From Candidatus Hermodarchaeota archaeon (GTDB lineage Archaea; Asgardarchaeota; Lokiarchaeia; Sigyniarchaeales; SOKP01): a stretch of 64,000 nucleotides of DNA. Below, in pieces: positions 11,498-43,467 of the stretch. Location of the stretch: positions 59,413 to 123,412 of the forward strand of contig JBHLLP010000004.1 in assembly GCA_048885525.1 (NCBI GenBank), written 5' to 3'. Within the stretch, counting starts at the first letter, position 1; each line of letters starts with the position of its first letter. The notes under the pieces are model-generated. The model saw only the letters and a list, made by a program, of their open reading frames with translations, did no database searches and had not been told where the DNA came from. A program made the position numbers and the translations under genes.

Positions 11498-11794
11498 CTT
11501 TATCAACACATTTCAAAAATAGATGAAATTAGAGAAATTCTTCTTAGTTTAATATAAGCAAAAGGAATAGAATCGGAAGATCCACGTATATTCTTAAACC
11601 CATAGATAAAAATTAAAATAGATGTTAAAAGATTAACTCCTTAGAAAGTTCTAACAGTTTTCCTAAATGAATTTTTTTTAATAACATAATGCAGCAATTT
11701 TTAAATAAGATTTAAGTAATAATAGATTCAAAAAAAAGCCTAATTTTAAATATTTTTTGTCAGTTTATTTTTTTACTAAAATTCAAAGTTCCAT

Positions 11795-11818
11795 TGTAGT
11801 TCAACAATAAAAACTATA
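11795..11818. promoter_or_regulatory. Candidate operator TGTAGTT-N10-AACTATA upstream of MFS copy 1
   Basis: Imperfect inverted repeat inside a ~45-bp block also present upstream of MFS copy 2. Confidence 0.45.
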
Positions 11819-11924
11819 AATATTCAAAATTATATATCTTACTCGCTATATAACAATTTTATGTAATTTTCGAAACCACAAATTTCTAAAATATTATCTT
11901 GAACTATTAAATTGATGATTTTTT

Positions 11925-13193: not shown

Positions 13194-13268
13194 GAGATAT
13201 CTCTATTATTTTCCTAATTATAATTAATTATTTAATTTTAAGTAAAGATCCTAAATTTAATATTAATG

Positions 13269-13302
13269 ATCGTGAAACACGTCTTCACGATGATTTTTTT
13301 TT
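13269..13302 (+). terminator. Hairpin ATCGTGAA-N7-TTCACGAT followed by a T-run
   Basis: 8-bp perfect stem about 75 nt after the MFS1 stop, then a run of T; could alternatively be a protein-binding palindrome. Confidence 0.4.
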
Positions 13303-13350
13303 GTTAAATTTTAAATTTTAAAGCTAGCTTTTTCAAAATTAAAGTTCTAT

Positions 13351-13374
13351 TATAGTTCAATAATTTAAACTATA
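13351..13374. promoter_or_regulatory. Candidate operator TATAGTT-N10-AACTATA upstream of MFS copy 2
   Basis: Perfect 7-bp inverted repeat in the block conserved with 11781-11825. Confidence 0.5.
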
Positions 13375-13494
13375 AATATTAAAAATCATTTCTTTAAGCA
13401 CTCCATAGCATATTTATTTATGAAAGCTTATCTATTTTTAAAAACTTCAAATTTATACTATGTACTGATAAATACTTAAGTTAATGATAAAGCC

Positions 13495-14781
13495 ATGTTC
13501 AAAAAAATTAAACTAGCATATAAAGAATATCCTAATTCATTTAAAGTGCTTACTCTTGCTACTTTCATTGATAGGTTAGGATCTTTTCTATTATTCCCTT
13601 TTTTTGCTCTATATATAACAGAGCATTTTGGAGTGGGGATGATCCAAGTGGGTTTCCTATTTTCGATCTTTTCAGCCGGGGATATATTCGGTGGTATGAT
13701 AGGAGGAGCATTAGCTGATAAATATGGTCGTCGTATGTTGATTCTTTTTGGTCTAATTGTAAGTGGGATAGGAAGTATCTTAATGGGATTAGTTAATGAT
13801 TTGCATATATTTTTTATTCTTGCGTTATTTTTAGGTTTGATAGGCAATTTTGGAGGTCCAGCACGACAGGCAATGGTAGCGGATATTCTTCCAAAAGATA
13901 AACAAGCAGAAGGATTTGGAATTTTACGAGTGGCACTTAATCTTTCAGCTGTGATTGGTCCAATCCTAGGTGGAATTTTGGCCGCTCGATCTTATATGTT
14001 GTTATTTGTTGCGGATGCTGTGAGTAGTATAATTACGGCGATTATTGTATTTGGTGTAATTCCAGAAACAAAACCTCAAAAGCAGGATGAAAAACCAGAA
14101 GAATCTGTAATACAAACCATTATAGGATATAAAGAAGTGTTAAAAGATTGGGTATATATGGTATTTCTTGGGGTTTCAGCCTTAACGGTATTAGTGTATA
14201 TACAAATGAATAGCACACTTTCAGTATTCTTACGAGACGTTCATGGGTTCCCGGTGCAGAGTTTTGGTTTATTGTTAGCTATGAATGCGACTATGGTGGT
14301 GCTATTTCAATTATGGATAACAAAAAAGATTTCAAAATATGCTCCCATGAAGATGATGACCCTTGGAACTCTGTTTTATTTAATTGGTTTTGGTATGTAT
14401 GGGTTTATTTCTGAGGTATATCTATTTTTCATCGCTATGGTAATTATCACAGTAGGGGAGATGATTGTGATACCAGTTTCCCAAGCTGCTGCAGCATTTT
14501 TTGCTCCTGAAGATAAACGAGGTAGGTATATGGCAATGTTTGGTTTCCATTGGGCAATCCCAAATTTGTTTGCAGTTTTAATTGCTGGAGTAATTATGGA
14601 AAATATTGGACCATATTGGGTGTGGTATTTTGCTGGGATTCTGTCTTTTACGGCAATGATAGGGTTTTGGTCACTTCATGGTGTTACCAAACATCGCTTT
14701 CTAAAAGAAATAAAACCTATGGAAGATAAAGAAGAATTTATTACTCGATCTCAAACACAATCTTCAGATATTCATATTTAG
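13495..14781 (+). CDS. MFS transporter (DHA/MdtH-like), tandem copy 2
   Basis: Aligns end-to-end by eye with 11925-13193; 3' end overlaps the convergent gene by 41 bp. Confidence 0.92.
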   Translation: MFKKIKLAYKEYPNSFKVLTLATFIDRLGSFLLFPFFALYITEHFGVGMIQVGFLFSIFSAGDIFGGMIGGALADKYGRRMLILFGLIVSGIGSILMGLVNDLHIFFILALFLGLIGNFGGPARQAMVADILPKDKQAEGFGILRVALNLSAVIGPILGGILAARSYMLLFVADAVSSIITAIIVFGVIPETKPQKQDEKPEESVIQTIIGYKEVLKDWVYMVFLGVSALTVLVYIQMNSTLSVFLRDVHGFPVQSFGLLLAMNATMVVLFQLWITKKISKYAPMKMMTLGTLFYLIGFGMYGFISEVYLFFIAMVIITVGEMIVIPVSQAAAAFFAPEDKRGRYMAMFGFHWAIPNLFAVLIAGVIMENIGPYWVWYFAGILSFTAMIGFWSLHGVTKHRFLKEIKPMEDKEEFITRSQTQSSDIHI

Positions 14782-16743: not shown

Positions 16744-18267
16744 ATGTTTGTTGCAGCTTTAGATTTAGGAACAACAGGTTGTAGAACTTTCATTTTTGAT
16801 TTATCTGGGTCCATAATTGCAAGTGATTATCAAGAATGGCAGAGTTATTATCCTTCACCCTCATTTGTTGAACAAGATGCTAATATTTGGTGGGATTCAA
16901 TTAAAACAACGATAGAACGAGCAATTAAAAAAAGTGGAATTGATAAAACTGAGATTGTAAGCCTTTCAGTTACTAATCAAAGAGAAACGATAGTACCAGT
17001 AGATAAAGATGGAAATCCTCTGCATAATGCCTTAGTCTGGCAAGATAGAAGGACAATAAATCAAGTAGAATTCATTAAATCAAAAATTGGTTTAAGTAAA
17101 ATTTATGAAACTACGGGACTAACTATAGATCCATATTTTTCTGCGACAAAAATTCTTTGGTTTAAAGATGAAAAACCAGAGATTTATCAAAAAACTCATA
17201 AATTTTTACTTGTATCTGATTTCATTATTCAAAAGTTAACAGGTAAGTTCTGTACAGATTATTCAAATGCCTCACGAACAATGCTATTTGATATCAATGA
17301 ATTAAAATATTCTGAAGAAATTGCATCTGAAATGGAGATAGATTTAGATAAAATGCCAGAAACCCTTGAAAGCGGAGTTGATATTGGAGAAATTGTTACC
17401 CACGAAACTTTATTTGACAAGAAAACCTTAGTAGTAACTGGCGCAGGGGATCAACAATCAGCCGCTTTAGGCGTTGGAGTAGTATCCCCTGGTGAAATTA
17501 AATGCACAACAGGAACAGGAAGTTTTATTTTAGCCTATTTATCACAACCAAAATTCGATCCTGAAAAGCGTGTTTTATGTAGTTGTCATGCTGTTCCAGG
17601 TAGTTGGGTTCAAGAAGCTAGTATATTTACAACTGGAGCAGTGCTCAGATGGTTTCGTGATCAAATAGGACATGCTGAATGCGCAGCAGCTCAAGAAGGC
17701 CAAGATCCTTATGATTTAATTACTGCAGAAGCGGAAAAATCTTCCATTGGAGCAAATGGGTTAATTATAATTCCTCATTTTGTTGGTTCCGGAGCCCCAC
17801 ATTGGAACCCCTTTGCCAGAGGTCTTATTTTTGGCTTAGCTTTGGGTCATGAACGTAAAGATCTCTATAGAGCAGTACTTGAGAGTGTAGCTTATGAATT
17901 AAGAAAAAATGTTGAAGTTTTTAAGGAATTAGGAATAGAACCAAAAGAATTAATGTTAACTGGTGGAGGTTCTCGTTCTGATTTTTGGAATCAGATTTAT
18001 GCTGATGTACTAGGAATCACATGTGTTAGGAATGTTATAGAAGAATCAACTTCGTTAGGAGCTGCCATTTTAGCTGCATCAGGAGCGGGAATTTTTCCTG
18101 ACATTGCAAAAGCAGCTGAAAATTTATGTAAAATAGATAAAAAATGGATTCCTAATAATGATCGGCATAAACTCTATGAGAAATATTATATTTTCTCATA
18201 TGAAATGTATGAAAATATACTGAGCAAAAATCTCTATAAAAAATTCAATAATATTCTTTTAAAATAA
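16744..18267 (+). CDS. FGGY-family carbohydrate kinase (xylulokinase/glycerol kinase-like)
   Basis: DLGTT, TNQRET, WQDRR, SNASRTMLFD, GDQQSA, TGGGSRS. Confidence 0.92.
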   Translation: MFVAALDLGTTGCRTFIFDLSGSIIASDYQEWQSYYPSPSFVEQDANIWWDSIKTTIERAIKKSGIDKTEIVSLSVTNQRETIVPVDKDGNPLHNALVWQDRRTINQVEFIKSKIGLSKIYETTGLTIDPYFSATKILWFKDEKPEIYQKTHKFLLVSDFIIQKLTGKFCTDYSNASRTMLFDINELKYSEEIASEMEIDLDKMPETLESGVDIGEIVTHETLFDKKTLVVTGAGDQQSAALGVGVVSPGEIKCTTGTGSFILAYLSQPKFDPEKRVLCSCHAVPGSWVQEASIFTTGAVLRWFRDQIGHAECAAAQEGQDPYDLITAEAEKSSIGANGLIIIPHFVGSGAPHWNPFARGLIFGLALGHERKDLYRAVLESVAYELRKNVEVFKELGIEPKELMLTGGGSRSDFWNQIYADVLGITCVRNVIEESTSLGAAILAASGAGIFPDIAKAAENLCKIDKKWIPNNDRHKLYEKYYIFSYEMYENILSKNLYKKFNNILLK

Positions 18268-30875: not shown

Positions 30876-30955
30876 AAGATATATTTTACTTAAATATCTT
30901 ATTGTATTGTTTTATGAATTTAAAAATTAAAAAAATAATAGAGAAACAATTATAT

Positions 30956-32461
30956 ATGGGAAGCTCTGATAAAATACTCTCGATTGATATATCTTCAAAC
31001 AATGTTAAAGTAGGGATTGTTTCTGATAAATTGGAGTTAGAATCTGTTTTAATTCAAAAATATGATGTTATTGATGAAGATATTGATGGCTTTGCAAAAC
31101 GATTTGATATGGATGATATGTGGAAAAAAGTTAGATTAGGGATACAGAAAGTAATAAAAAAAAATAAACCTAAAAATATCCTTGGCATATCTTCATGCGG
31201 CCAAAGAATGGCTACAGTTTTTTTAAATAAAAAGGGAAAAGAGATTTATGGTGGACCTAATACTGATATGAGAGGTATTGATTCCGCTTATCTTATTGAA
31301 GATGAATTTTCTGATGAAGATTTATTCAAGATAACTGCACATAGCCCATTCTTAATGTTTACATTAGCTCGCTTGTTATGGTTCAAAGAGGAGAAAGAAG
31401 ATCAATATAACGATATTGGAAAATTGTTAATGCTTGATGATTGGCTTGTTTATAAATTTACCGGAGAATTTTATGCAGATTATACTTCTTTAGGAGAATC
31501 TTTACTTTTTGATATTAATAAAAAAAAATGGAGTATGGAAATTATCGAAGCTTTTGACATAAATCCTGATATCCTCCCTGAAATCGTTGAATCAGGCACA
31601 CTTGTGGGAGAATTAAAAATGAATCTAATGAAAGAATTCGGCATAAACCAACATTCACTTCCTGTTTTAAAAGGATGTGGTGATACACAAGCTAATTTAT
31701 TAGGTATGGGTGCAATTGAAGATGGAAATATTGGAATTACTTTAGGAACAACAGCACCAGTTCATTTAGTTATTGATAAACCAATAATAGATCCTGAACT
31801 AAATTTTTGGACTGACTGTCATGTGATTAAGAATAAATGGTTGCTTGAAGCTAATACTGGAGGTACAGGTAGGGTTTATGATTGGTTCAAAAGTGCATTT
31901 ATTTCAGATCCAGAGAGAAATGCAAATGAAATAATGGATGATATTTTGAACAGAGTAATACCCGGTGCTGGGTCTACTTTTGCCTTTCTAGGTCCGGAAC
32001 TCATGGCGATAAAAGATCAAACATCAATCAAAAGAGGTGTTTTTATATTTCCCCCTCCTAGTATGATTGGAGAGGATTTACCTAAATTACAAAACTTTGC
32101 TCGAAGTATGATTGAAGGAATTTGTTTTGGGATTCTTGAGAACTTCCAAGCTTTAAAAAAATTCACACAATCAGAAATAAAAACGTTTTGTGCCGGAGGA
32201 ATGGCTAAATCTTATGAATTTTGTAAAATTCTTGCGAATATATTAAACCAAAAAATAAATGTTTGTCAATACAAGGATTCTGCTTTTATTGGATGTGCAA
32301 TGAATACCTTGATAGGCTTAAATTTATATCAAGACTATAGGAGTATTGTTGATAATTTGATAGAATTCGAAAAATTTTCAGTTGAACTGCCCATCTCAAA
32401 TGAATATAGGAAAATATTTCGGGAGTGGAAATATTTAAAGAATAAGTTAAGTAAATTATAG
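30956..32461 (+). CDS. FGGY-family carbohydrate kinase (LsrK/xylulokinase-like), divergent
   Basis: SIDISS, QR, LARLLWFKE, GDTQ, GTT, AGG motifs; ATG at 30956 likely start. Confidence 0.82.
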   Translation: MGSSDKILSIDISSNNVKVGIVSDKLELESVLIQKYDVIDEDIDGFAKRFDMDDMWKKVRLGIQKVIKKNKPKNILGISSCGQRMATVFLNKKGKEIYGGPNTDMRGIDSAYLIEDEFSDEDLFKITAHSPFLMFTLARLLWFKEEKEDQYNDIGKLLMLDDWLVYKFTGEFYADYTSLGESLLFDINKKKWSMEIIEAFDINPDILPEIVESGTLVGELKMNLMKEFGINQHSLPVLKGCGDTQANLLGMGAIEDGNIGITLGTTAPVHLVIDKPIIDPELNFWTDCHVIKNKWLLEANTGGTGRVYDWFKSAFISDPERNANEIMDDILNRVIPGAGSTFAFLGPELMAIKDQTSIKRGVFIFPPPSMIGEDLPKLQNFARSMIEGICFGILENFQALKKFTQSEIKTFCAGGMAKSYEFCKILANILNQKINVCQYKDSAFIGCAMNTLIGLNLYQDYRSIVDNLIEFEKFSVELPISNEYRKIFREWKYLKNKLSKL

Positions 32462-32478
32462 CAATTTAATCTAAATGT

Positions 32479-33267
32479 TTATAAAGTTCTCTTCTTGATA
32501 ATAGATTCAATATTGGCTCCTTCTTTCCAATACCAGTCAAATAATTCTTTTGACCAGTTTATAAAAATCTCACTATCATCAAATAGACATTCACTATAAT
32601 CAATTTTTCCCTCTCTACTCAAAAATAGTATAGCTCCCTTATCAGTAACTAAAAGAGAGAACAAAATTTGTTTTAATATACGAATATTCTGTGAAATGTT
32701 TACCTTTTGATAAAATGCATGGCGGTCATCAAGCTTTTCGTATCCCTTTGAGGCTAACACATTTTCATCCACTAAAGCTTTTATCTTAATAGACATATTA
32801 TTAATTTTTCGCTCTACTGCTGGTAAAATTGAATCTTGAAATTGATCTGAGATTGCTAAAATAAATTTTTCTGATTTTTTAATAATCTCTGACCATAACT
32901 CTATATTTTGCATTGTGCCACTCTTAAGTCTCATAGTTTTTAAATTCCCTAATTGTAAAATTAAATTTAGAGGGAAATAGTTAATATTATGTTTATTAAA
33001 AAAAGTCTCAAACTTTAATGATACTTCAAACAGCTCTAAAATATCCATGAACATCTTGCCGATGTTAGTACTTTCATATTTATTATCCATTGTTTTTTTA
33101 ACTAAATTTTTATCGATAAGTCTTTTTAGATGACGTGAAATTTCAGAACCTCTTATATCCAATTCTTTTTCTAATTGACTATGTCTTTTTTTTCCCATAT
33201 ATAAACTTTTAAAGACTTCAAATCGACCTTCATTGGAAAATTCAAAAAATAAATCATTAATTCTCAA
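32479..33267 (-). CDS. ArsR-like winged-HTH transcriptional regulator with C-terminal (DUF1724-like) domain
   Basis: LFFE.SNE.R, EISRHLKRL, C-terminal W..ELF.WYW. Confidence 0.8.
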   Translation of the reverse strand: MRINDLFFEFSNEGRFEVFKSLYMGKKRHSQLEKELDIRGSEISRHLKRLIDKNLVKKTMDNKYESTNIGKMFMDILELFEVSLKFETFFNKHNINYFPLNLILQLGNLKTMRLKSGTMQNIELWSEIIKKSEKFILAISDQFQDSILPAVERKINNMSIKIKALVDENVLASKGYEKLDDRHAFYQKVNISQNIRILKQILFSLLVTDKGAILFLSREGKIDYSECLFDDSEIFINWSKELFDWYWKEGANIESIIKKRTL

Positions 33268-33349
33268 GTTAACTCAGCATATTTTACAATTTTAAAAATT
33301 TTATTTGAATCCTTTGATAATATATGAATTTAGATCAATTAAAAATTGT

Positions 33350-33383
33350 TTTTATCAATCAAAATTTTTTTCTATTGATAAAA
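33350..33383. promoter_or_regulatory. Candidate operator TTTTATCAAT-N14-ATTGATAAAA
   Basis: Perfect 10-bp inverted repeat in the divergent intergenic region between the regulator and the SCP2/dehydrogenase genes. Confidence 0.45.
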
Positions 33384-33493
33384 TTATTTTTAAAGAGATT
33401 ATAGGGATTCTTTATTACATTTTTATATCTTTTTATACATAACATTATAATTATTAAATCTATTTTAATCCGAAAAAATAAAAACATAAAAAA

Positions 33494-33844
33494 ATGACAG
33501 AATTCAAAGAAATTACAGATTGTTTAGAAGAAATAAAGAATCGATATATTAATGACGAAAAAATAAGAAAAAAATTAGCTAAATATGATGAGCCTATCCA
33601 AATAAAATTTTTAGATACAGATAGAAAAGTTTTACTATTAATTAATAGAGATGAAGGAATTGAAGTAAAAGATCACAGTGGAGACGACACAGCCACGGTA
33701 AAAATTGAATTTACAGGAGAAAACGTGATAATTGATCTATTTAACAAAGAATTAGGTGCTATTAAAGCCTATTCTGATGGAAAAATAAAAATAGTAGAAG
33801 GAAATATAAGAAATTTAATGAAACTTCGAAGTTTAATGTTTTAA
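33494..33844 (+). CDS. SCP2 (sterol carrier protein 2) domain lipid-binding protein
   Basis: IQIKF.D, A.V.I, DLF..EL....AY..GKIKI.EG....LMKL pattern. Confidence 0.72.
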   Translation: MTEFKEITDCLEEIKNRYINDEKIRKKLAKYDEPIQIKFLDTDRKVLLLINRDEGIEVKDHSGDDTATVKIEFTGENVIIDLFNKELGAIKAYSDGKIKIVEGNIRNLMKLRSLMF

Positions 33845-33915
33845 CTAAGTTCTTTTTATTTAATTTAATAAATAATTTATGATATAATACCTAATTATAA
33901 AAGAGAGTATAAATA

Positions 33916-35598
33916 ATGAAAACTCTAATAACAGCAAAGATTACTGACGATTGTTTAAACGAATTAGAAAAATTGATGGAAATTTCATATGAACCATGGA
34001 GAGAAACAGGAATAATTTATTTTGATGTGAATGAGCTTGTCGAAAAACTAAAGGATTATGACATTTTTATAACAGAAGCAGATGATTTAAAGAAGGAAGA
34101 TCTATTTGAAAAAACTAATATAAAACTTATTGTTTCATGTAGAGGCGATCCGTTTAATGTTAATCTAAAAGCCGCAACTAAAAAGAATATTCCAGTACTT
34201 TATACTCCACTAAGAAACGTTGACGCGGTCGCAGAATTGACTATAGGCTTGATGTTAATGTTAGCCCGAAAATTGCATATTGTTGATCGAATAATTCATT
34301 CTGATGAATTTGAAGTAATTGAATTTGAAGATTTTATTGAATATTTAAATAAATTTCAAGGAATTGAATTAAAACATAAGACAATTGGGATAATAGGTTT
34401 AGGGCAAATTGGTAGAAGAGTCGCAAATATGCTTAAATCCTTTGAAGTTGAATTTCTTATATATGATCCTTATATAGACGAAGAAATCATTAACCAGTAT
34501 GGTAAAAAAGTTGAGATTGATTATCTAATGAAAAATTCTGATTTTATAACAATACATAGTATAGCAACTGATGAAAATGAGAAACTTATTAATGAAGAGC
34601 GAATTAATATGATGAAAAAATCAGCATTTCTAATTAACACTGCAAAAGGGAGCATAGTTGATTATGATGCTTTACAAAGAGCTCTAAAAGAGGAAAAGAT
34701 AAGTGGTTCAGCTTTAGATGTTTTTCCTCTTGAACCTATTGATGAAGATAATGAATTTATTGAATTAAAAAATGCAATCATCACCCCTCATATTGGGGGA
34801 GATACAGAGGAAGTAATAAAAAGGCAATCAGTAATTTTATTACATGATATAAAAGCGTGGTTAAAGGGTGAAAGACCTAAGCATGTTATGAATCCAGAAG
34901 TATTTAAAGAAGGAGAAATAAAGACTTCCTTAAATGATGATAAGTTTTACAGATTAAAAGAGGAAATAGTAAATTTATGTAAAGAATTACTAAAAGAAAA
35001 ACACGTGATTGGTTCAGCTGGCAATGTCAGCCTAAGAGTAAAAGAACAAGGGAAACAATTTGTACTAATAACTCCTAGTAATGTTCTGTATACTGAGATG
35101 GTGCCAGAAGATATTCTTATTCTTGATATAGAAGGAAAAGTAATAGAAGGAGAGAGAAATCCTTCAGTTGAGAAAAAAATGCACTTAAGTATATATCATG
35201 AAAGAAAAGATGTGAATGCAATAATTCATGCACATAGTATTTATTCTACTATTCTTAGTACTTTAAAACTAACAATACCTCCTATTTTTGAAGAATTTGT
35301 ACCATATATAGGTGGTGAAGTTTTATGTGCAGATTATGGAGAAGCCGGTACTGAAGAATTAGCAGATGGAGTACTAGCATTCTTAGAAGAAAGAAATGCC
35401 GTTTTACTAGCAAATCATGGAAATTTATGTTGTGGTAGTCATTTAGATGGAGCTTATACTGTATTAAAATATCTTGAGAGGGGAGCAAAGATCTACTTTT
35501 TAGCTAAACTTATAAAAGAGCCAAATTTATTACCTGAAGATACAATAGACTATGAAATGGATATCTTTGATATTTTTAAAGATTCTAAAAAAATATAA
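33916..35598 (+). CDS. Fusion: D-2-hydroxyacid dehydrogenase (SerA-like) + class II aldolase (FucA-like)
   Basis: N-part RGDP.NV, AVAELT, GLGQIG, YDPY, INTAKG, LDVF..EP, TPHIGG; C-part GNVS.R, ITPS, PSVE..MH, IIHAH, LANHG. Confidence 0.9.
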   Translation: MKTLITAKITDDCLNELEKLMEISYEPWRETGIIYFDVNELVEKLKDYDIFITEADDLKKEDLFEKTNIKLIVSCRGDPFNVNLKAATKKNIPVLYTPLRNVDAVAELTIGLMLMLARKLHIVDRIIHSDEFEVIEFEDFIEYLNKFQGIELKHKTIGIIGLGQIGRRVANMLKSFEVEFLIYDPYIDEEIINQYGKKVEIDYLMKNSDFITIHSIATDENEKLINEERINMMKKSAFLINTAKGSIVDYDALQRALKEEKISGSALDVFPLEPIDEDNEFIELKNAIITPHIGGDTEEVIKRQSVILLHDIKAWLKGERPKHVMNPEVFKEGEIKTSLNDDKFYRLKEEIVNLCKELLKEKHVIGSAGNVSLRVKEQGKQFVLITPSNVLYTEMVPEDILILDIEGKVIEGERNPSVEKKMHLSIYHERKDVNAIIHAHSIYSTILSTLKLTIPPIFEEFVPYIGGEVLCADYGEAGTEELADGVLAFLEERNAVLLANHGNLCCGSHLDGAYTVLKYLERGAKIYFLAKLIKEPNLLPEDTIDYEMDIFDIFKDSKKI

Positions 35599-35628
35599 AA
35601 GATTCTGAAGTAAAAATAATCACTGTCT

Positions 35629-36348
35629 TTACTTTCTATATAGTGATTTTAATGCAATTTCGGTTGATTCTTTTGCTTGTTGTTTTGTAACCATTCCAAT
35701 TGTCACAGCACTTATATTATGATTTTTGATATATTGGAATGCTAAATCTGGTTCAATCGATCCTGCTGCTAGAGTTTTCATACCTATAAAATAATAATTC
35801 TTCGTACTATCAACAAGTTCTTCTAATTCTTTTGGATTTCCCATTAAAAACCCATTCACATTAAAGGGTATCAAAAATACTTTCACATTTAAAGAATTTT
35901 CTATACAATATTGAATCGTTGGAATTGGGTCATGCGTTGCGACACCTGGAATAATTCCATATCCAGAAATATCATCTAAAAGCTTTATCAAATTTGTTCC
36001 TTTATTATCAGAAACCATTCCATGTACGAATATTAACTTTGCTCCCTTTTCGATTAATAGGTTAACTTTGGAATCTACTCCCGGATAGGTGGAACCTGTG
36101 ATTACATAATCGGTATACTTTTCACTCATCATCTGAGCTGCTTCTAATATTTTTCCACTAGGTATCACTTGGATACCGCGTGCTCCTCTTATATAACTAG
36201 CGTCTAATATCTCAAATATTGCTTTAGGGTGGTTTAAAAATTTCCTACGCCATTCAAATGCCTTAAATCCAAATTGTCCAGCACCGATGAATGGTGAAGT
36301 TCCTACAGAAACGAGTGGAATATTTATATTATCAATCTTACAAAAAAT
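35629..36348 (-). CDS. Aldo-keto-reductase-like TIM-barrel protein (N-terminus extended to ATT at 36348)
   Basis: Frame is open upstream of the track start and encodes IPLVSVGTSPFIGAGQFG...; C-terminal GVATH.P, PFN..G..M, MKTLAAG.I.P..A. Confidence 0.65.
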   Translation of the reverse strand: MFCKIDNINIPLVSVGTSPFIGAGQFGFKAFEWRRKFLNHPKAIFEILDASYIRGARGIQVIPSGKILEAAQMMSEKYTDYVITGSTYPGVDSKVNLLIEKGAKLIFVHGMVSDNKGTNLIKLLDDISGYGIIPGVATHDPIPTIQYCIENSLNVKVFLIPFNVNGFLMGNPKELEELVDSTKNYYFIGMKTLAAGSIEPDLAFQYIKNHNISAVTIGMVTKQQAKESTEIALKSLYRK

Positions 36349-36513
36349 TTTTACCCCTTCCTTAACTTTTAGTAAAATTAATTTAAATTTTCTAGGTGAT
36401 TATTATTAACCGAATTATAAAATTTTAAGTTACAAATCATATAAATACATAAACAATATTACTCATAAAATATAATACGAATTCAAGCTTCTTACATTGA
36501 AGAGGAGATAAGG

Positions 36514-38592
36514 ATATCACAAATTAATGGGATTATCTGTAATACTTTAACTTTTTATAATCAAGAATCTCAAATTATTAAAAGTCTTAACTCACTTCTT
36601 ATCCGCCATATTCTCACAAATGAAATAGATAGTCTTTTGCTTTTTGGCAGTATGGATTATACAAGTCTTTTTTCTCCTACAGAAAAAATAAGACTAATAG
36701 AACTTGTATTGCAAATCACGGAGAAAAAAAATCCTCTTCTTGTTGGAATCTATGGTGATCAGGTTGATATTATAATAAATCAGATAGAAAATTTAGGTAA
36801 GAAATTTGAAGATCTAAAATTTATGATTACCCCTCCTACTTCTGAAAAGAAATCAATAGACTTTTTAAAATCTTATTTTGAAAATATTTTAGGCTCTCTT
36901 ACATCTAAAAATCAGATCTTTTTAATTAATAATCCTCCATTGTTCGCGGGAAATGAGATTGAACCAAAACTCCTAAAAAGCTTATTAGAATTTTCAAATC
37001 TAAAAGGATTAAATGATTCTTTTTATAATATTAAGAACTGTAAAGCCTATATTCAAAATCTAAGCAATCATTTCACTGTTATATGCGGAATGGAAGCAAA
37101 TTCCCAAACTTTTCTTCAGCTAATTCCATTGAACATGAGAAAATATAGTGGGATTCTTTCTTCTCTTAGTAATATAGGCAACATGTATTCAAAGCTATAT
37201 AATTATGCAATAGAAGACAATCTCTTGGAACTTCTGCAATTGCAAGAACAAATAAATGATATTAGAAATAAACTTTATGAAGTTAAACCTAATGAAATTA
37301 ATGAGAATATTGGATTAAAATATGCTTTTTTACATCTATATAAGGATTTAATTTCAAGAAGTAATACAGATATAAATTATATTTATGAAGAATTGCTGAC
37401 TCAAATTGATCCAATAAGTAAAGAACGAATTGAGGCTACAGTTAATTTCTTGTTAAATCATAAGCAAATCTATAAATTATACTTTCTTGGAAAAAAAGAT
37501 CTTTACCAATTTGATGAAATCATCAAAACTTTTTCAAAAATTGATGTCTTAGTTAAGCAAGGGAAGGTAAAAAAAATAAAAGGACCTTATATCGTTAATA
37601 TTAATACGCTCTATAGAGTGAACTTTGAAAACAGTCATTTAGTCTTCAGATTTCGTACAAGTCAATCTCCCCAATCTGAAGATTTAATAAAAGAGAAACT
37701 TTTGTATCCTTTTTTAGATAAAACTTTAAATCCTACTGATATTGATTTAAGCAAAAAAGTGAAAGAAATCATTGCTACTAAGACTGGATCATATATATTC
37801 AATAAAAAAAATCCCCCTATAATCCCAGTCTACAATTTGATTTATTATGATGAGACTAAGGATATTGTTCCTTATATTTTTTCTGTGCAAGAATATATTA
37901 GAGGAAAACCTTTATTTCAACTCTTCAACCGGTATATCGGTGAAGGGAAAAGTCTTTATGTGAAAAAATTTTTAGATTTATTTTATAATTTAGGTGAACA
38001 ATTAGGGCATTTGCACGAAGTAAAATTTAATTCATTTTTCAAAAACGTTAACAATATTGGTAAAAAGGAAAAAATCCTTTATTCAGAATATTTTAAAAAT
38101 GAATTAGAAGAAAGACTCCAAGAAGCAAAAAAGAATAAAATAAATTTCTGTGATGACATTAGAGACTATTATCGAGATAATTTCTCGTTAATCGAAGATG
38201 AAACTGAATTTGTTCTTTTACATAATGATTTTAAAAGCCAAAATATTGTTGTTAAAGAGGAATTAGGTACTATAAAAATTAATGGTATTGTAGATTTTGA
38301 TCAATGGTGTATTGGAAGTCGAGCTCAAGATTTTATTAAAATAGATTATTGGATTTTAAAACCTTTAAATAATACTTCATTTTATAACTCATTTTACAAA
38401 GCATATTCTTCATTTTACAAAATAGATTCAGATTTTAAGAAAAAAGTAGAATTATACAAACTACTTTGGCTTTTAAATGAATATAATTTTGAATCAGAAA
38501 TATTAAAAAAATCAGATCAAATGGATATTACTGGTATACCATCAACATCATTAAGTAATTATTTATTCGAAATTAAAGCTATAATTCGATAA
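36514..38592 (+). CDS. Fusion: degenerate DHDPS/NAL-type TIM barrel + APH/choline-kinase-like phosphotransferase (N-terminus extended to ATA at 36514)
   Basis: N-terminal GIICNTLTFY...LLLFGS...EK..L, ITPP, INNP, GLNDS; C-terminal QEYIRG, LHNDFKSQNI, IVDFD. Confidence 0.75.
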   Translation: MSQINGIICNTLTFYNQESQIIKSLNSLLIRHILTNEIDSLLLFGSMDYTSLFSPTEKIRLIELVLQITEKKNPLLVGIYGDQVDIIINQIENLGKKFEDLKFMITPPTSEKKSIDFLKSYFENILGSLTSKNQIFLINNPPLFAGNEIEPKLLKSLLEFSNLKGLNDSFYNIKNCKAYIQNLSNHFTVICGMEANSQTFLQLIPLNMRKYSGILSSLSNIGNMYSKLYNYAIEDNLLELLQLQEQINDIRNKLYEVKPNEINENIGLKYAFLHLYKDLISRSNTDINYIYEELLTQIDPISKERIEATVNFLLNHKQIYKLYFLGKKDLYQFDEIIKTFSKIDVLVKQGKVKKIKGPYIVNINTLYRVNFENSHLVFRFRTSQSPQSEDLIKEKLLYPFLDKTLNPTDIDLSKKVKEIIATKTGSYIFNKKNPPIIPVYNLIYYDETKDIVPYIFSVQEYIRGKPLFQLFNRYIGEGKSLYVKKFLDLFYNLGEQLGHLHEVKFNSFFKNVNNIGKKEKILYSEYFKNELEERLQEAKKNKINFCDDIRDYYRDNFSLIEDETEFVLLHNDFKSQNIVVKEELGTIKINGIVDFDQWCIGSRAQDFIKIDYWILKPLNNTSFYNSFYKAYSSFYKIDSDFKKKVELYKLLWLLNEYNFESEILKKSDQMDITGIPSTSLSNYLFEIKAIIR

Positions 38593-38683
38593 CCTTTTTC
38601 TTGAATTATCACTTTCCAATTAAAGAAAAAGAAATTATTTAAATCATTTTAATTTTAATTCTTTACAATAGTTTAAGAACTTC

Positions 38684-39601
38684 ATGTTGAAAACTAAAAC
38701 TAAATTAAAATTAGCTGTTGAAGTCGTCCGTAAAGCTACAGAAATTACGGAATGGTTTAGAAAAAAGGGATTTGAATCCTTCTTGAAGTTAGATCAATCA
38801 CCTGTTACCTTAGCAGATTTTGCATCTCAAATTTATATCGTCTCACAGTTAAAACATTACTTCCCAAATGATGAAATAATTGCAGAAGAAGAAAATATTG
38901 ATTTTATAGATTTTAAGGCAGAAAAGCTGATTAAGAAATGTTTTAATGAATTAAATATTGAAGAATTAAAAAAAATTAAAGAAAATATTGGAATTCGAGG
39001 TCCATCTTCTGAATGTCAATGGACAGTAGACCCAATTGATGGGACGATTGGATATCAAAAGGGACTGCCTTATGCTGTAGGTGTTGGATTTATGATAAAT
39101 TCAATCCCCAAATTATGTGCGATTGCAGTACCAAATTATAATAATAATTCGTTAGCTGTCTTCTCAGCAGAGGAAGGTAAAGGAGCTCAAGTCTCATATG
39201 ATAATGAGAATTTTAAACCAATTTTAGTCAATAAAAATAAAGAAATACAAAATATACGATTATGCCATTCATTACATTATGATCAACCTTGGGTTCTTAA
39301 TTTTGCAAAGAAAATTGGTATTAAGAACTTCATTCAAATCGATAGTATGGTAAAATTTTGTATGGTAGCTGAAGGAACTGCTGATCTTTATATTAAACCC
39401 CTAGATGAAGAACATTCATTTACATGGGATTTTGTGCCAGGAGATTTAATAGTAAGGGAAGCAAGAGGAAACGTTACAGATCTAAATGGTGAGCGTTTAA
39501 TATTTAAAAATAAAAAATGTATATGGACAACTCCTGGTATTATTGCTTCTAATGGTTTCTTACATAGAAAGATTTTAGAATTATACCAAAAGAATCAATA
39601 A
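38684..39601 (+). CDS. Inositol monophosphatase family, HAL2/SAL1-like 3'(2'),5'-bisphosphate nucleotidase
   Basis: K.D.SPVTLADF.SQ, IAEE, W.VDPIDGT, DS..K, WD...G.LIV.EA.G.VTD. Confidence 0.85.
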   Translation: MLKTKTKLKLAVEVVRKATEITEWFRKKGFESFLKLDQSPVTLADFASQIYIVSQLKHYFPNDEIIAEEENIDFIDFKAEKLIKKCFNELNIEELKKIKENIGIRGPSSECQWTVDPIDGTIGYQKGLPYAVGVGFMINSIPKLCAIAVPNYNNNSLAVFSAEEGKGAQVSYDNENFKPILVNKNKEIQNIRLCHSLHYDQPWVLNFAKKIGIKNFIQIDSMVKFCMVAEGTADLYIKPLDEEHSFTWDFVPGDLIVREARGNVTDLNGERLIFKNKKCIWTTPGIIASNGFLHRKILELYQKNQ

Positions 39602-39633
39602 AAATTTTTATTTAATTTAAACAGAAAAAAGAC

Positions 39634-40146
39634 TTATTTTTTAAATTTCTCTAGTGAATCTTCAAGCCATTTTAAATACCAATCCTTAGAAGTTAGGTCT
39701 TTTTTTTCTAATCCACCATAATCTGATAACTTATCTATCCATATTTTCCCTACTTCTGGTCCAGAAATAATCAACCAATTGCGAATAGCCCATCCCTGAT
39801 GACAAATAGGAATCGCGCCATTAATCGCTTTCCAATACTCATCTTGAACCGCTAGATAATCTTTTTCAAATTCTTTTTTATCATCGTAATTTTCCTAATT
39901 AGGAAAGTTAGATTTATTATTCCAATCTGATGTATATGGAAATGGCTTAGATAGGACTCCAACAAAACCATCATTCTCTTTCCAGGCACTTTCATCATAT
40001 TCACCTAAGGGAAATCCTCCATAATAAGGACCGGTACCTCCATTTCCAATTTCCATCAAAAATGTCATATAATCTAACGGTAACTTTATTTTATGTCTAG
40101 TCTCAAATTTAATTATTACCTCTTCTGAGAGAGTAAATCCTCTAAT
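39634..40146 (-). pseudogene. SMI1/KNR4 (SUKH) family immunity protein pseudogene
   Basis: Manual translation LSEE.I.KFE.RHKIKLPLDY..FL.EIGNGG.GPYYG...KPFP...*...NGAIPICHQG...LIISG...GKIW...WY.KWLE; in-frame TAG at 39895-39897; no start codon. Confidence 0.8.
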
Positions 40147-40221
40147 TTAGATAAAATATCATTTAAATCCATCAATCTTTAAACCATCTTTATTATTAAT
40201 GATAATTATATGATTATTTAA

Positions 40222-41310
40222 TTAAATTCTAGCAAACTCTAATAAATTTGTCTGTTTTACTTTTAAATTCTTATTAAAATTAGATAACTTAATTCCTAAT
40301 AATCTTACCTTTTTTTTATTACCTATAAACTCTTTATATAAATCTAGTACTGTCTTTATTGTGATCTTTTGATCCTGAATTGGTAGATCATATGATTTTG
40401 AGCGAGTATAAGTTTCAAATCCACTTAATCGAATTTTTAGGGTTATAGTTCTATAAGAAATATGATGTTTAATAGCAGATTTGTGAATCTTCTCATTAAT
40501 ATCCTCTAACTTTTCCATTATAACAGAAAAATCATTGGTATCTTCATAAAAAGTTCTTTCTGCACTTATAGATTTTCTATCTTCAACAAATTCTTTTACT
40601 TTACGATTATCTAAACCATTAGCTACATTCCAGATCCATCTCCCATGTTTTCCAAATAACTCAATCATCTTAGGTAATTTTGTATTAATTATGTCGCCAA
40701 TCGTGTTAATTCCTTTTTTATTGAAATTTACTTTTGTTTTCTTACCTATGCCTGGGATACGAGTAATTTCCATATCTTTTACAAGGTCATGAATATTTTC
40801 AGGTTTTACTACAGTAATACCATTAGGTTTATTTTCATCAGATGCAATCTTAGCTAATGATTTTGTAGGGGCGATGCCTATTGAGATAGTAATTCCAATC
40901 TTTTCAGAAATTTCTTTTTGAATTTCTTTTGCAATTTCTTCTGCTTTTTCATAATCGCTTGTTATATTTGTTAATTCTAGATATGCTTCATCTGTCCCAA
41001 CTCTCTGAAATTCATCACTAAAAGTTTCAAGGATATTCATCACTTGTTTTGATACTTCATAATATTTTTCTCCATTCGCTCTTAAATAAATTCCATGAGG
41101 ACATCTTTTATAAGCTTGAGATATTGGCATAGCTGAATGTAATCCATATTTTCTTGCTTCATAATTACAAGTTGCTATAACTCCTCGCCCTTGACCTTCT
41201 TTTGGATCCGCTCCTATTATAACTGGTTTATTTTTATATTGTGGGTTGTCTCTTATTTCTACAGCAGCAAAAAAACAATCAAGATCACAGTGTAAAATAA
41301 CACGATTCAT
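40222..41310 (-). CDS. dinB: DNA polymerase IV (DinB, Y family)
   Basis: HCDLDCFFAAVE, CNYEAR..G..SAM, DEAY, K.LAKIASD..KPNG, C-terminal QTNLLEF PIP-like motif. Confidence 0.95.
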   Translation of the reverse strand: MNRVILHCDLDCFFAAVEIRDNPQYKNKPVIIGADPKEGQGRGVIATCNYEARKYGLHSAMPISQAYKRCPHGIYLRANGEKYYEVSKQVMNILETFSDEFQRVGTDEAYLELTNITSDYEKAEEIAKEIQKEISEKIGITISIGIAPTKSLAKIASDENKPNGITVVKPENIHDLVKDMEITRIPGIGKKTKVNFNKKGINTIGDIINTKLPKMIELFGKHGRWIWNVANGLDNRKVKEFVEDRKSISAERTFYEDTNDFSVIMEKLEDINEKIHKSAIKHHISYRTITLKIRLSGFETYTRSKSYDLPIQDQKITIKTVLDLYKEFIGNKKKVRLLGIKLSNFNKNLKVKQTNLLEFARI

Positions 41311-41491
41311 TATATAACAAAGGAGAGTTATCATTACTAAAATATAGTTTTCATTTTTGATATTCATAAATATTATTTAAAAATACAGACTTCCAAGAAT
41401 TATTAGAAATATCACATTTATGAGTTTTATATCGCTTTAGTGAATATTATTATCAAAATATATTTTTAATTGAATCTTAATTATTTAAATT

Positions 41492-42172
41492 ATGGCATTG
41501 AATAAAGAAGATCAAATTCGTATTGAAGTTGTAAAGGGAGCAAAAGCAATTTTCTCAAAGGGATTAGTGGAAGCTGGAGAAGGTAATGTAAGTGTGAGAT
41601 ATGATAAAAAAGAAGAATTATTTATCACACCTTCATTTAATCAATATGAATCTCTAAAAAAAGATGAAATCGTGCATCTAAATTTTGAAGGGACAGCTTT
41701 AAGCGCTGGAAAATTACCCTCAACTGAAGCAAAGATGCATATCGCGATATATAAATCGAGACCAAAAGTTCAAGCAGTAATCCATACACATTCCCCCTAT
41801 GCGACTATGCTCTCAATTGTCCGAAAAAATATTCCATTAATAATGGAAGAGATGTTTATCTTTTTAGGTGGTTCTGTTGATGTTTCTGAATTTGGAGAAG
41901 CCCATACTATAGAGATTGGGGAAGTAGCTCTAAATGCATTAGGTATTAAAAATGCTGCCCTTTTAGCAAATCACGGTGTTATTGTCTGCGGAAAATCATT
42001 AGATCAGGCTATTAAATTTGCTGAATTAGTTGAAAAGCTCGCTAAAATATATTGGGGTGCCTTACAAATTGGTAAGCCTAACATAATTTCTCAAGAACAT
42101 CTAGAACGATTTCAAAAACTCTTTGAAAGTCTTTTTGCCAATTATCCAAGAAGCATGCGAAAAAAAATATGA
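41492..42172 (+). CDS. Class II aldolase (L-fuculose-1-phosphate aldolase-like)
   Basis: GNVSVR, ITPS, PSTE..MH, IHTH, LANHG. Confidence 0.9.
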   Translation: MALNKEDQIRIEVVKGAKAIFSKGLVEAGEGNVSVRYDKKEELFITPSFNQYESLKKDEIVHLNFEGTALSAGKLPSTEAKMHIAIYKSRPKVQAVIHTHSPYATMLSIVRKNIPLIMEEMFIFLGGSVDVSEFGEAHTIEIGEVALNALGIKNAALLANHGVIVCGKSLDQAIKFAELVEKLAKIYWGALQIGKPNIISQEHLERFQKLFESLFANYPRSMRKKI

Positions 42173-42199
42173 ATAAATCATGGTGGATGAGTAAATTTT

Positions 42200-43030
42200 A
42201 TGAAATTAGGTATTAGTACCTTAGGGCATGTAATTGATTTAGCCCTTAAAGGAAATTTTAAAGATCTTAAAGAATTACAATTTAAAGCTTCAGTAGAATG
42301 CTTAAATTTTGCTGAGCAAAGTGGAATAGAATTTGTTGAATTAGTAATAGATCTTCCTGAAGTTTTTGATAATGAAAATAGGCAGGAATTCATAAAAAAT
42401 GTGAATTCTTACAGTTTAAAAAAACAAATTCATGGACCTTATGTTGATTTGAGTTTATGTTCTTATAATAATCATATAAGAGAGGCATCAATAGAATCAT
42501 GTAAAGAAACAGCAAAGATATGTTATCAAATTGATGTTGAAACAATGACAATACATCCTGGTTATGCAAACTTTATGTTAGGCTCTATTCGAGAAATTAA
42601 TAAGGAGCAATTAAAACGGTCTATTCATACATTACTAGACTCTATAAATCATAATAAATTAAAGATTTGTTTAGAAAATATGCCTCAAGATGCCTATATT
42701 ATGACAGATACCAATAATATCGAAGAAATATTTAAAGTAATTAATCGAAATGATCTATTTATCACTTATGATACTAGCCATTTTTACACGTGTGATGGTG
42801 ATCTGAGACTTTTATGGGCAAAATTTCACAGTATTATAAAAAATGTTCATATTGTTGATAATTTCACAAAAATTTCTGATACACACCCAACTTTAGGTAC
42901 TGGAAAGATTGATTTTAAAGAAATTATTGATGTAATGAAAAATTATAATTATAATGGACCTTTAATTATTGAGTTATCTTCTGTGAAATCATTAAATCAA
43001 AGTATTAATTTTATTAACAAGTTCTTATAA
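42200..43030 (+). CDS. Sugar phosphate isomerase/epimerase (xylose isomerase-like TIM barrel)
   Basis: IHGP, IHPG, LENM, YDTSH, HIVDN...DTH...G.G.IDF, IIE. Confidence 0.88.
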   Translation: MKLGISTLGHVIDLALKGNFKDLKELQFKASVECLNFAEQSGIEFVELVIDLPEVFDNENRQEFIKNVNSYSLKKQIHGPYVDLSLCSYNNHIREASIESCKETAKICYQIDVETMTIHPGYANFMLGSIREINKEQLKRSIHTLLDSINHNKLKICLENMPQDAYIMTDTNNIEEIFKVINRNDLFITYDTSHFYTCDGDLRLLWAKFHSIIKNVHIVDNFTKISDTHPTLGTGKIDFKEIIDVMKNYNYNGPLIIELSSVKSLNQSINFINKFL

Positions 43031-43074
43031 CTAATTTATAGTATCAAACATAATTTCAATAATATAAACTTAAA

Positions 43075-43467
43075 ATGCCAATAATATCTTTGCAAGTAAG
43101 TGACGATTTATTAGAAAGATTTGAAAAGGTACGAAGTCTTAGTGGATTTACTTCAAAAAGTGAAGCTTTGAGGGGTTCCATAATAAATTTCATTGAAAAA
43201 CATGAAAAACTTGAAAATCTCGAAGGATATAAATTAATGACCGTGAGTCTAGTATATCCTTTTAAAGAAATAATTGTTGATCAAATAACCGAATTATATT
43301 CTCGATATCACCAAATTATAAAAACAGTAACAGATTGGCGGATTGCAGAAAAAAAAATAGAGTTACTTTTATTAGTAGGTGAATTTGGAACAATTAAAGA
43401 TTTTTATAAAGAATTAGCTAAAATAAAGGAAATCATCTGTTCCATTCGGGAAATTATCATTGACTAA
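43075..43467 (+). CDS. NikR/CopG-like ribbon-helix-helix regulator
   Basis: IISL.V...LL..F......GF.SKSEALR N-terminus plus ACT-like C-terminus. Confidence 0.8.
   Translation: MPIISLQVSDDLLERFEKVRSLSGFTSKSEALRGSIINFIEKHEKLENLEGYKLMTVSLVYPFKEIIVDQITELYSRYHQIIKTVTDWRIAEKKIELLLLVGEFGTIKDFYKELAKIKEIICSIREIIID

Follow-up and report, generated by a model that had tools for sequence, protein, structure and literature searches.

Do the sugar-type genes at positions 30956-43467 of the stretch analysed here form a single catabolic system, and if not, which of them belong together and what might they do? The stretch, hereafter the window, is 64,000 nucleotides of contig JBHLLP010000004.1 from a Candidatus Hermodarchaeota archaeon of the class Lokiarchaeia; it is low in G+C (about 29%), and its nearest protein matches are metagenome-assembled genomes annotated as Lokiarchaeota or Promethearchaeota. 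An earlier sequence-only reading had taken the whole run as one undescribed pathway. An uncharacterised catabolic module does exist at this locus, although the real unit is a 4.7 kb cassette (30902-35598) encoding an FGGY kinase, an optional winged-helix-turn-helix (wHTH) regulator, a protein of the SCP2 family and a dehydrogenase-aldolase fusion. This cassette, which accounts for just four of some eleven genes flagged in that reading, is a real, conserved and uncharacterised variant of a known pathway type.

The boundaries of the unit emerge when the locus is set against 40 relatives and, after that, against 150 genomes of the class (151 in the tallies). Members of the genus share the order of the entire neighbourhood, which extends from SRP54 at one end to nadC and further at the other; because these flanking housekeeping genes are as syntenic as the genes between them, conserved order is uninformative here and reflects shared ancestry. 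Five genomes of the same genus (G003, G012, G013, G024 and G019) have an empty site, in which SRP54, an RNA methyltransferase gene, an amidohydrolase gene and AMMECR1 are followed directly by the genes that lie downstream of the cassette. Exactly four genes are gone in all five, namely those for the kinase, the wHTH regulator, the SCP2 protein and the fusion. As far as the contigs extend, the downstream genes present are one that encodes a DHDPS-APH fusion in five of five, orfX in three, and the full run to the second aldolase, barrel and NikR-like genes in G003 and G012; the G019 site still holds a 29-residue remnant of the FGGY kinase. No kinase orthologue was found genome-wide in these five genomes, and a genome-wide search for SCP2 orthologues in the cassette-less genomes gave none, the only match being at 29% identity with an E value of 5e-4. 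In G022 the cassette is present without orfX, the DHDPS-APH gene or the phosphatase gene.

The same core recurs farther away. Families f2 and f4, genome G008 of the window's genus, and genus g15 have only the SCP2 gene, the fusion gene and an adjacent FGGY kinase gene in common. Eight loci of a second version of the cassette (type B, the window's being type A), drawn from three families, likewise have nothing in common around the fusion gene except an SCP2 gene immediately before it and a neighbouring FGGY kinase gene. Type-B fusions are 46-48% identical to type A, and in G008 and G128 the type-B cassette occupies the same chromosomal slot. The G128 locus (L047, G128:C1:290000-309999) carries its type-B cassette of putatively membrane-anchored SCP2, fusion and kinase at 11173-14167, after AMMECR1, and a leftover soluble type-A SCP2 gene (62% identical) stands beside it; the shared slot and the leftover gene suggest that one version of the cassette was replaced by the other. 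The fusion is present in 92 of the 151 genomes, never in more than one intact full-length copy, and type-A and type-B fusions never occur together as intact genes, one genome having a broken copy in pieces.

The regulator is a facultative part of the cassette. Divergent from the SCP2 gene, it separates that gene from the kinase gene in G005, G018 and G023, as well as in the type-B cassette of G008, and it is absent from the cassettes of G022, G002, G046 and G091. The promoter region between the regulator and SCP2 genes contains an imperfect AT-rich palindrome (33334-33399; ATCAATTAAAAATTG...TATTGAT), the core of which is partly conserved in three orthologous loci. It may be a candidate operator, in a region so rich in AT that the repeat could have arisen by chance.

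The logic of kinase, redox step and class II aldolase that the sequence-only reading had proposed suits this four-gene module, and the fusion protein combines the last two. Its residues 1-335 probably belong to the D-2-hydroxyacid dehydrogenase family and residues ~345-560 are a FucA/DrdA-like class II (zinc) aldolase (Pfam 2-Hacid_dh_C 7.5e-53, Aldolase_II 1.6e-47), the NAD-binding and catalytic domains of the dehydrogenase being detected at 179 and 52 bits. Across 23 orthologues the GxGxxG motif, D184, E273 and H292 are invariant in the dehydrogenase half, as are G369-N370, E419, H438, H440 and H501 in the aldolase half. The dehydrogenase has the subfamily motifs RG(D/N)PxNV and P(G)RN, which it shares with bacterial fusions and with stand-alone proteins of ~340 residues; the usual substrate Arg is Lys in the window's clade (NTAKG) and Arg in the type-B and bacterial forms (NLARAS / NTARAA). 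Its closest solved relatives are phosphoglycerate dehydrogenases and glyoxylate reductases, with NCBIfam equivalog scores under the cut-offs for both (220 vs 454 and 206 vs 455, respectively). For the aldolase domain the top PDB match is 6btd, which we take to be the 5-deoxyribulose-1-phosphate aldolase DrdA, followed by the FucA entries 4c24 and 1fua; the alignment is full-length and the GNVS, PSVE, HAHS and NHG motifs are retained. The three zinc His residues, the catalytic Glu (FucA E73) and the phosphate-binding G-N and S-x-E motifs place the domain among FucA-type class II aldolases, while its score of 184 against the FucA equivalog cut-off of 264 means that identity of substrate is not implied.

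The kinase is a member of the FGGY family by both of its domains, which exceed the Pfam gathering scores (FGGY_N 1.8e-42, 146.1 bits, cut-off 28.8; FGGY_C 2.3e-13, 50.8 bits, cut-off 27). The N-terminal motif of the type-A kinase is DISS, where DxGT is usual. It reaches none of the NCBIfam equivalog cut-offs for LsrK (195 vs 528), XylB (192 vs 380), FucK (112 vs 471) or GlpK (103 vs 590). LsrK is the best NCBIfam model for all three kinase groups, that is type A, type B and the bacterial fused form described below, and the latter two are likewise under the equivalog cut-offs (LsrK 115-260 vs 528 bits over the groups).

The window's SCP2 protein matches the Pfam SCP2 family over its whole length (5.8e-07, 30.2 vs 21.3 bits), and its gene lies 71 bp upstream of the fusion gene on the same strand. 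Its AlphaFold model has a predicted local distance difference test score (pLDDT) of 76, with a C-terminal helix of low confidence, and aligns at template modelling (TM) scores of 0.58-0.67 to AF1534, the SCP-2L domain of human MFE-2, rabbit SCP2 and the C-domains of alkylsulfatases. Lipid- or alkyl-binding SCP2 modules are the only structural matches; the Pfam match and the predicted structure together assign the protein to the sterol-carrier fold. Type-B SCP2 proteins are larger (256-314 residues), with two strongly hydrophobic segments at the N-terminus and a Ser/Pro/Lys-rich linker ahead of the SCP2 domain. Their Kyte-Doolittle maxima over 19 residues are 2.1-3.6, vs 0.48 for the window's SCP2, and they are predicted to be membrane-anchored via two helices, the window's protein being predicted to be soluble. 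In seven of the eight type-B loci that were compared first, and in G128, the gene immediately before the fusion gene encodes an SCP2 protein; the eighth has a weaker match in that place. More broadly, bacterial four-domain fusions contain an SCP2 domain, and the archaeal loci examined in the order of the window have one next to the fusion gene; shorter kinase-dehydrogenase forms lack it. A predicted complex of the fusion with the SCP2 protein, built with alignment inputs, scored 0.00, which gives no verdict and was counted neither way.

The bacterial relatives join all of these activities in one chain. A search of 1.8 billion cluster representatives returned many proteins of 1,220-1,485 residues that match both halves of the fusion, with Pfam domains in the order FGGY, 2-Hacid_dh, SCP2 (one or two copies) and Aldolase_II. 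Eight proteins were scanned: seven carry two to four of the domains in that order, two of them holding all four intact, and the eighth, a 576-residue dehydrogenase-aldolase, has the archaeal form. Shorter proteins with FGGY and dehydrogenase domains were also found. Where many bacteria have all four domains fused, the protein is 1,280-1,480 residues long. Among GTDB species representatives there are at least 511 related loci, spanning Chloroflexota, Myxococcota, Actinomycetota, Spirochaetales, Binatia, Thermoleophilia and Bacillota, and cultured carriers of the four-domain gene include Bellilinea caldifistulae GOMI-1 and Mycobacterium persicum. The archaeal and bacterial forms have the same four domains, the RGxPxNV/PGRN dehydrogenase motifs and the same zinc and Glu residues of the aldolase; they differ in that one polypeptide replaces three window genes, in kinases that are ~25% identical, and in the Lys that stands for Arg in the window's clade. 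That all four domains can occur on a single chain argues strongly for their action on a common substrate. On balance we favour the view that the cassette is the archaeal multi-gene form of a widespread, uncharacterised kinase-dehydrogenase-SCP2-aldolase module, taken jointly with the mechanism set out next.

We postulate that the cassette probably serves to remove a three-carbon sugar phosphate from a hydrophobic molecule at its polyol end. The SCP2 protein would hold the hydrophobic part of an amphipathic, polyol-ended substrate, R-(CHOH)3-CH2OH, while the FGGY kinase would phosphorylate its terminal CH2OH (C1). By likeness to the SerA-like enzyme that acts on 3-phosphoglycerate, the NAD-dependent dehydrogenase domain could then oxidise the C2 CHOH next to the phosphate to give a ketose-1-phosphate-type end. 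The FucA/DrdA-like zinc aldolase domain would cut the C3-C4 bond, releasing dihydroxyacetone phosphate (DHAP) to glycolysis and an aldehyde, R-CHO. This aldehyde would be reduced, or oxidised by an aldehyde:ferredoxin oxidoreductase (AFOR) or aldehyde dehydrogenase encoded elsewhere in the genome. The proposed chemistry draws on the invariance of the His/Glu pair and NAD motif of the dehydrogenase and of the zinc His residues, Glu and GN of the aldolase; the hydrophobic remainder is suggested by the SCP2 domain, by the predicted type-B membrane anchor and by lipid-type neighbours of the bacterial genes. The case for a hydrophobic, lipid-like substrate is circumstantial. The hint of one in the sequence-only reading, drawn from the SCP2 gene, gains support from the predicted membrane-anchored SCP2 orthologues and from these neighbours.

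The neighbours were read in two sets, Pfam being applied to every gene of the first eight bacterial contexts and annotation of 53 further species-level loci being confined to the ten commonest neighbour families. The first set has SorC-type regulators in three contexts, MFS transporters in three, AFOR in one, an aldehyde dehydrogenase in one and short-chain dehydrogenases/reductases (SDRs) in two. In the second, the families are NAD-epimerase/3-beta-HSD (9 loci), P450 (8), class III aminotransferase (6), acyl-CoA ligase (6), SDR (6), GntR (5), TetR (5), AFOR (4), thiolase-like (4) and KshA-like Rieske oxygenase (4). At least one neighbour of a lipid-catabolism type (P450, KshA-like, TetR, acyl-CoA ligase, thiolase-like or 3-beta-HSD-family) is present at 24 of the 53 loci. 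The set of P450, TetR, KshA-like, ligase and thiolase genes occurs in Myxococcota, Binatia and UBP10 and is typical of steroid- or terpenoid-type lipid catabolism. A possible outlet for the aldehyde also adjoins the module in places: AFOR in three archaeal genera and five Chloroflexota loci, an Aldedh-family gene in one bacterial locus, and a FucO-like iron-dependent alcohol dehydrogenase (Fe-ADH) in two archaeal loci of one genus. As a separate observation, four Chloroflexota loci (L055, L093, L108 and L111) have a recurring set of GntR/UTRA, class III aminotransferase, NAD-epimerase/3-beta-HSD-family and AFOR genes by the four-domain gene, and this set hints that the substrate may be handled there in an amino-polyol form.

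Several observations weigh against a polyol-clipping, lipid-directed module of common origin. First, the type-A, type-B and bacterial fused kinases are only ~25% identical pairwise (BLAST), no closer to one another than to the second FGGY kinase of the window, and the kinase may have been recruited more than once. Second, no FGGY kinase or SCP2 gene was detected near the loci of family f6, a more distant one of the class, where the dehydrogenase and the aldolase are separate adjacent genes (L043, G043:C6, 5603-10330; L045). Third, the position aligned with FucA Tyr113 appears, on our reading of the alignment, to be Glu in the window's protein. Fourth, the bacterial neighbours are heterogeneous: the SorC-type sugar-phosphate regulators and MFS sugar-type transporters point to a small soluble sugar, and no gene of hopanoid synthesis, nor one specific for another substrate, turned up in the first eight contexts, the 53 further loci having been annotated for the ten families. 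Fifth, AFOR is ubiquitous, occurring in 131 of the 151 genomes of the class (search with one orthologue), mostly not adjoining the cassette, and it is not beside the cassette in the window's own genome; its association with the cassette is for this reason only partial. Lastly, we infer both the order of the steps and the substrate. At one f6 locus, the dehydrogenase/aldolase pair follows genes for a DUF35/ChsH2-like protein, an SCP-x-type thiolase and a family III CoA-transferase.

In one specific form of the proposed mechanism, Lokiarchaeia, Chloroflexota and Myxococcota would clip the polyol tails of membrane lipids, bacteriohopanetetrol being an example, without need of oxygen. The lipid would be extracted by SCP2, C33-C35 would leave as DHAP through the kinase, dehydrogenase and aldolase, and the resulting C32 hopanoid aldehyde would then be oxidised to the acid. 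Chemical cleavage of bacteriohopanetetrol with periodate gives a C32 product (PMC12583986); our literature search found no enzyme that degrades the hopanoid side chain. We consider this substrate a doubtful proposal of low probability, and other amphipathic ribityl or polyol compounds fit the data equally well.

The best-surviving alternative keeps the cassette and changes its substrate. It holds that a small water-soluble compound is degraded, with SCP2 as a structural or scaffolding domain that has no lipid ligand; candidates are a deoxy-sugar alcohol, a pentitol, a hexitol, a 5-deoxypentose derivative, or a diketone like autoinducer-2 (AI-2) or 4,5-dihydroxy-2,3-pentanedione (DPD) imported by an MFS transporter. 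The kinases agree with this in matching the model of LsrK, the AI-2 kinase, best, but the matches fall far under its cut-off. In three bacterial loci the gene immediately before the fused one encodes the SorC/LsrR-type regulator, with its sugar-phosphate-binding domain; a gene for an MFS sugar-type transporter adjoins the fused gene in three, and one fused gene has LarA and an FAD-type lactate dehydrogenase as its flanking genes. The solved relative 6btd, presumably DrdA, and the FucO-like Fe-ADH beside two archaeal modules fit a sugar as well. What such a substrate accounts for poorly is the SCP2 domain itself, which stays with the aldolase both in the order of the window and in the four-domain proteins of bacteria, occurs twice in some fusions and is predicted to be membrane-anchored in type B, together with the steroid- or terpenoid-type neighbours in Myxococcota, Binatia and UBP10. 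We regard a soluble substrate as unlikely, though deserving of real weight.

A sugar-acid (tetronate-like) route receives a clearly lower probability from us. In it the dehydrogenase would oxidise a phosphorylated 2-hydroxy acid and the aldolase-fold domain would be a decarboxylase of the OtnC kind, which the second aldolase downstream and the AP_endonuc_2 barrel might assist as an OtnC/OtnI pair. The dehydrogenase family does normally act on 2-hydroxy acids, and the substrate Arg is kept in the type-B and bacterial forms, but it is Lys (NTAKG) in the window's own clade. Class II aldolase-fold decarboxylases are documented in such pathways (PMC12994016), and the OtnC model matches both aldolase-fold proteins of the window, yet at 113 and 104 bits against a cut-off of 250, with FucA models scoring higher. 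An AP_endonuc_2 gene does follow the second aldolase gene, but its OtnI score is 31 against 325, and the gene is facultative, genus-confined and unlinked to the cassette. No DUF1537 domain was found among the scanned open reading frames (ORFs) of the region, which together with the OtnC and OtnI scores counts against an OtnK-OtnC-OtnI pathway, and the route leaves SCP2 and the aldehyde-oxidising neighbours unexplained. The dehydrogenase of PMC12994016 is an SDR-type L-threonate 3-dehydrogenase, of another family.

The reading of all of 30956-43467 as a single route of several steps that acts on an unusual sugar, polyol or lipid head group has conserved gene order across the genus, compatible themes (kinase, phosphatase and aldolases) and, in about 15 genomes of sister genus g14, a DHDPS-APH gene directly downstream of the fusion gene in its favour, but we hold it to be highly improbable, given that the housekeeping flanks are equally syntenic, that the cassette is lost or replaced with the other genes unchanged and is kept in G022 without three of them, that the DHDPS-APH gene and the fusion are uncoupled by genus (g16 8/8 vs 0/8, g13 0/5 vs 4/5, g15 0/7 vs 5/7), that the f2 and f4 counterparts lie on other contigs with none of the rest nearby, and that no fewer than six transcription units, lying on both strands, make up the 12.5 kb region. 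Lack of co-conservation in related genomes was the ground on which that reading had itself agreed to fall, and most of its genes are not co-conserved.

The gene inventory (Table 1) was drawn from an ORF listing with Pfam and NCBIfam scans, and every gene named in the sequence-only reading was found at or near the coordinates it gave; two of its labels, those for orfX and for the AP_endonuc_2 gene, are not established.

Table 1. Features of the cassette, its inherited neighbours and two further genes of the window
Feature	Position	Strand	Basis or remark
FGGY kinase (type A)	30902..32461, probable ATG 30956	+	Pfam FGGY_N, FGGY_C
wHTH regulator	32479..33267	-	Pfam HVO_A0261_N / FilR1_middle / ArsR-like; FilR1/ArsR/TrmB-like matches
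Divergent promoter region, regulator/SCP2	33268..33493	.	Contains imperfect AT-rich palindrome
SCP2 protein, 116 residues	33494..33844	+	Pfam SCP2
2-Hacid_dh + Aldolase_II fusion, 560 residues	33916..35598	+	Pfam
orfX, no family match	35629 to about 36348	-	No Pfam or PDB sequence match
DHDPS + APH fusion	open 36469 to 38592	+	Pfam
Inositol_P-family phosphatase	38684-39601		HAL2 the best model, below cut-off
SUKH-family (SMI1/KNR4) gene, one in-frame stop	39634-40146	-	Pfam
DinB	40222-41367	-	Pfam
Second class II aldolase, stand-alone	41492-42172		Pfam
AP_endonuc_2 / xylose-isomerase-like TIM barrel	42200-43030		Pfam
NikR-like ribbon-helix-helix protein	43075-43467		Pfam
Second FGGY kinase	16744-18267		Elsewhere in window
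GPH/MFS_2 porter	62586-63989		Elsewhere in window

The genes from orfX to the NikR-like gene (orfX, DHDPS-APH, phosphatase, SUKH pseudogene, DinB, second aldolase, AP_endonuc_2 barrel and NikR) are inherited neighbours and not parts of the system. The DHDPS-APH gene is present in 86 of the 151 genomes. Its DHDPS-like and APH-like parts are conserved together as an independent unit, a fusion in family f1 and two genes in f2 and f4 (L039-L042), where the split genes are adjacent, with no other window genes nearby. In g14 the gene is on the same strand as the fusion gene, and on account of that adjacency a loose functional link is kept at a small probability. The sequence-only reading had noted Asn (GLNDS) in its translation in place of an expected Schiff-base Lys; the Asn is indeed visible, and the expectation of Lys is that reading's own. 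This gene, divergent from orfX, needs a start before its first canonical codon, the DHDPS profile beginning at model position 2 only if read from 36469.

The label of aldo-keto reductase (AKR)-like barrel for orfX is not borne out: Aldo_ket_red gives no Pfam match, and the structure model, of moderate confidence, is a generic TIM barrel with mixed matches to HPS, KDPG aldolase and AKR. The orfX protein is conserved from (I)FCKID on in eight orthologous loci (the window, L015, L021, L022, L026, L034, L035 and L037), in-frame stops lie 3-6 codons upstream (36346-36520 area) with no ATG, GTG or TTG between, and the gene probably starts at an AUU/AUA codon. For the phosphatase, HAL2 is indeed the best model, but with a score of 138 bits against a cut-off of 267. 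The SUKH gene, which has its single in-frame stop between 39894 and 39895, is probably a pseudogene. The sugar-phosphate epimerase label for the AP_endonuc_2 gene finds no backing, since all NCBIfam matches are far under their cut-offs, the best being the CbiR phosphodiesterase model (63 vs 105 bits). This gene is absent in four genomes that retain the second aldolase, and outside the genus it has only distant, unlinked relatives; the pair was considered as a part of the system and rejected, being unlinked to the cassette and, in its AP_endonuc_2 member, facultative. The second FGGY kinase and the GPH porter are present as the sequence-only reading had said, but neither belongs to the system: the kinase is an ordinary XylB/GlpK-like enzyme (373 bits vs the XylB cut-off of 380), and the porter has no close orthologue in cassette-containing or cassette-less relatives.

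If the proposed polyol-clipping chemistry is true, the module would let microbes, some of them anaerobes, recover a C3 unit for glycolysis from lipid-like molecules at their polar end, by a compact and very widespread route present in Asgard archaea and in six or more phyla of bacteria. A large family whose members carry only the annotation 'NAD(P)-dependent oxidoreductase' or 'AI-2 kinase' would thereby gain a function, the coupling of an SCP2 carrier to sugar-type enzymes would be explained, and named microbial groups might be tied to the early diagenesis of lipid biomarkers. Under the hopanoid form of it, this would be a biological step from biohopanoids to the C32 hopanoic acids and hopanols abundant in sediments. 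The presence of the fused gene in cultured bacteria makes the module directly testable.

Our literature search found no enzyme or paper for such a C3-clipping step, no characterised member of the module, no report of FGGY, SCP2 and aldolase together, and nothing on Rv0727c / Rv0728c / Rv0729; for yoaC / yoaD it found only a 2009 annotation guess of cysteine degradation (PMC2885750). In a preprint on a Hodarchaeales microcompartment, the class II aldolase that is mentioned belongs to an unrelated operon.

Among characterised systems, the lsr AI-2 system (LsrR, LsrK, LsrG, LsrF) resembles the module in its kinase, for which LsrK is the nearest model, and in the SorC/LsrR-type regulator of three bacterial loci; it differs in that the LsrK cut-off is not reached, in that none of the examined loci showed LsrG or LsrF, and in LsrF itself, a thiolase with the fold of class I aldolases and no class II enzyme. 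Peroxisomal MFE-2 and SCPx likewise couple a catabolic enzyme, a dehydrogenase or a thiolase, to a lipid-presenting SCP2 domain, and the window's SCP2 model aligns to the MFE-2 SCP-2L domain at TM 0.66, whereas their chemistry is CoA-thioester beta-oxidation and their catalytic domains are unrelated. Closer is 5-deoxyribose disposal, or the DHAP shunt (DrdK-DrdI-DrdA; MtnK/MtnP-MtnA-Ald2), which has the aldolase nearest to ours by way of 6btd and yields DHAP and a small aldehyde from a phosphorylated sugar. The shunt uses an APH-family kinase and an MtnA-type isomerase; in the cassette the kinase is of the FGGY family, there is no sign of an isomerase, and a dehydrogenase and SCP2 are extra. 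No IF-2B/MtnA-family gene was found among the scanned ORFs from 26.7 to 47.3 kb, and the APH-domain gene near the cassette is not co-conserved with it, which counts against membership in the Drd pathway. L-Fucose and L-rhamnose catabolism (FucK or RhaB, FucA or RhaD, FucO/AldA) shares an FGGY kinase and a FucA-type zinc aldolase that gives DHAP and an aldehyde, which is then oxidised or reduced, and AFOR, Aldedh or Fe-ADH genes lie near the module in some loci. The cassette differs in reaching none of the FucA, FucK and RhaB equivalog cut-offs, in adding SCP2, and in having no isomerase; a domain of the 2-hydroxyacid dehydrogenase family is fused to the aldolase instead, which points to formation of the ketone by oxidation of a polyol phosphate. 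Judged by its predicted domains, what is new in the cassette relative to the fucose/rhamnose and 5-deoxyribose routes is the replacement of the isomerase by a dehydrogenase and the addition of SCP2.

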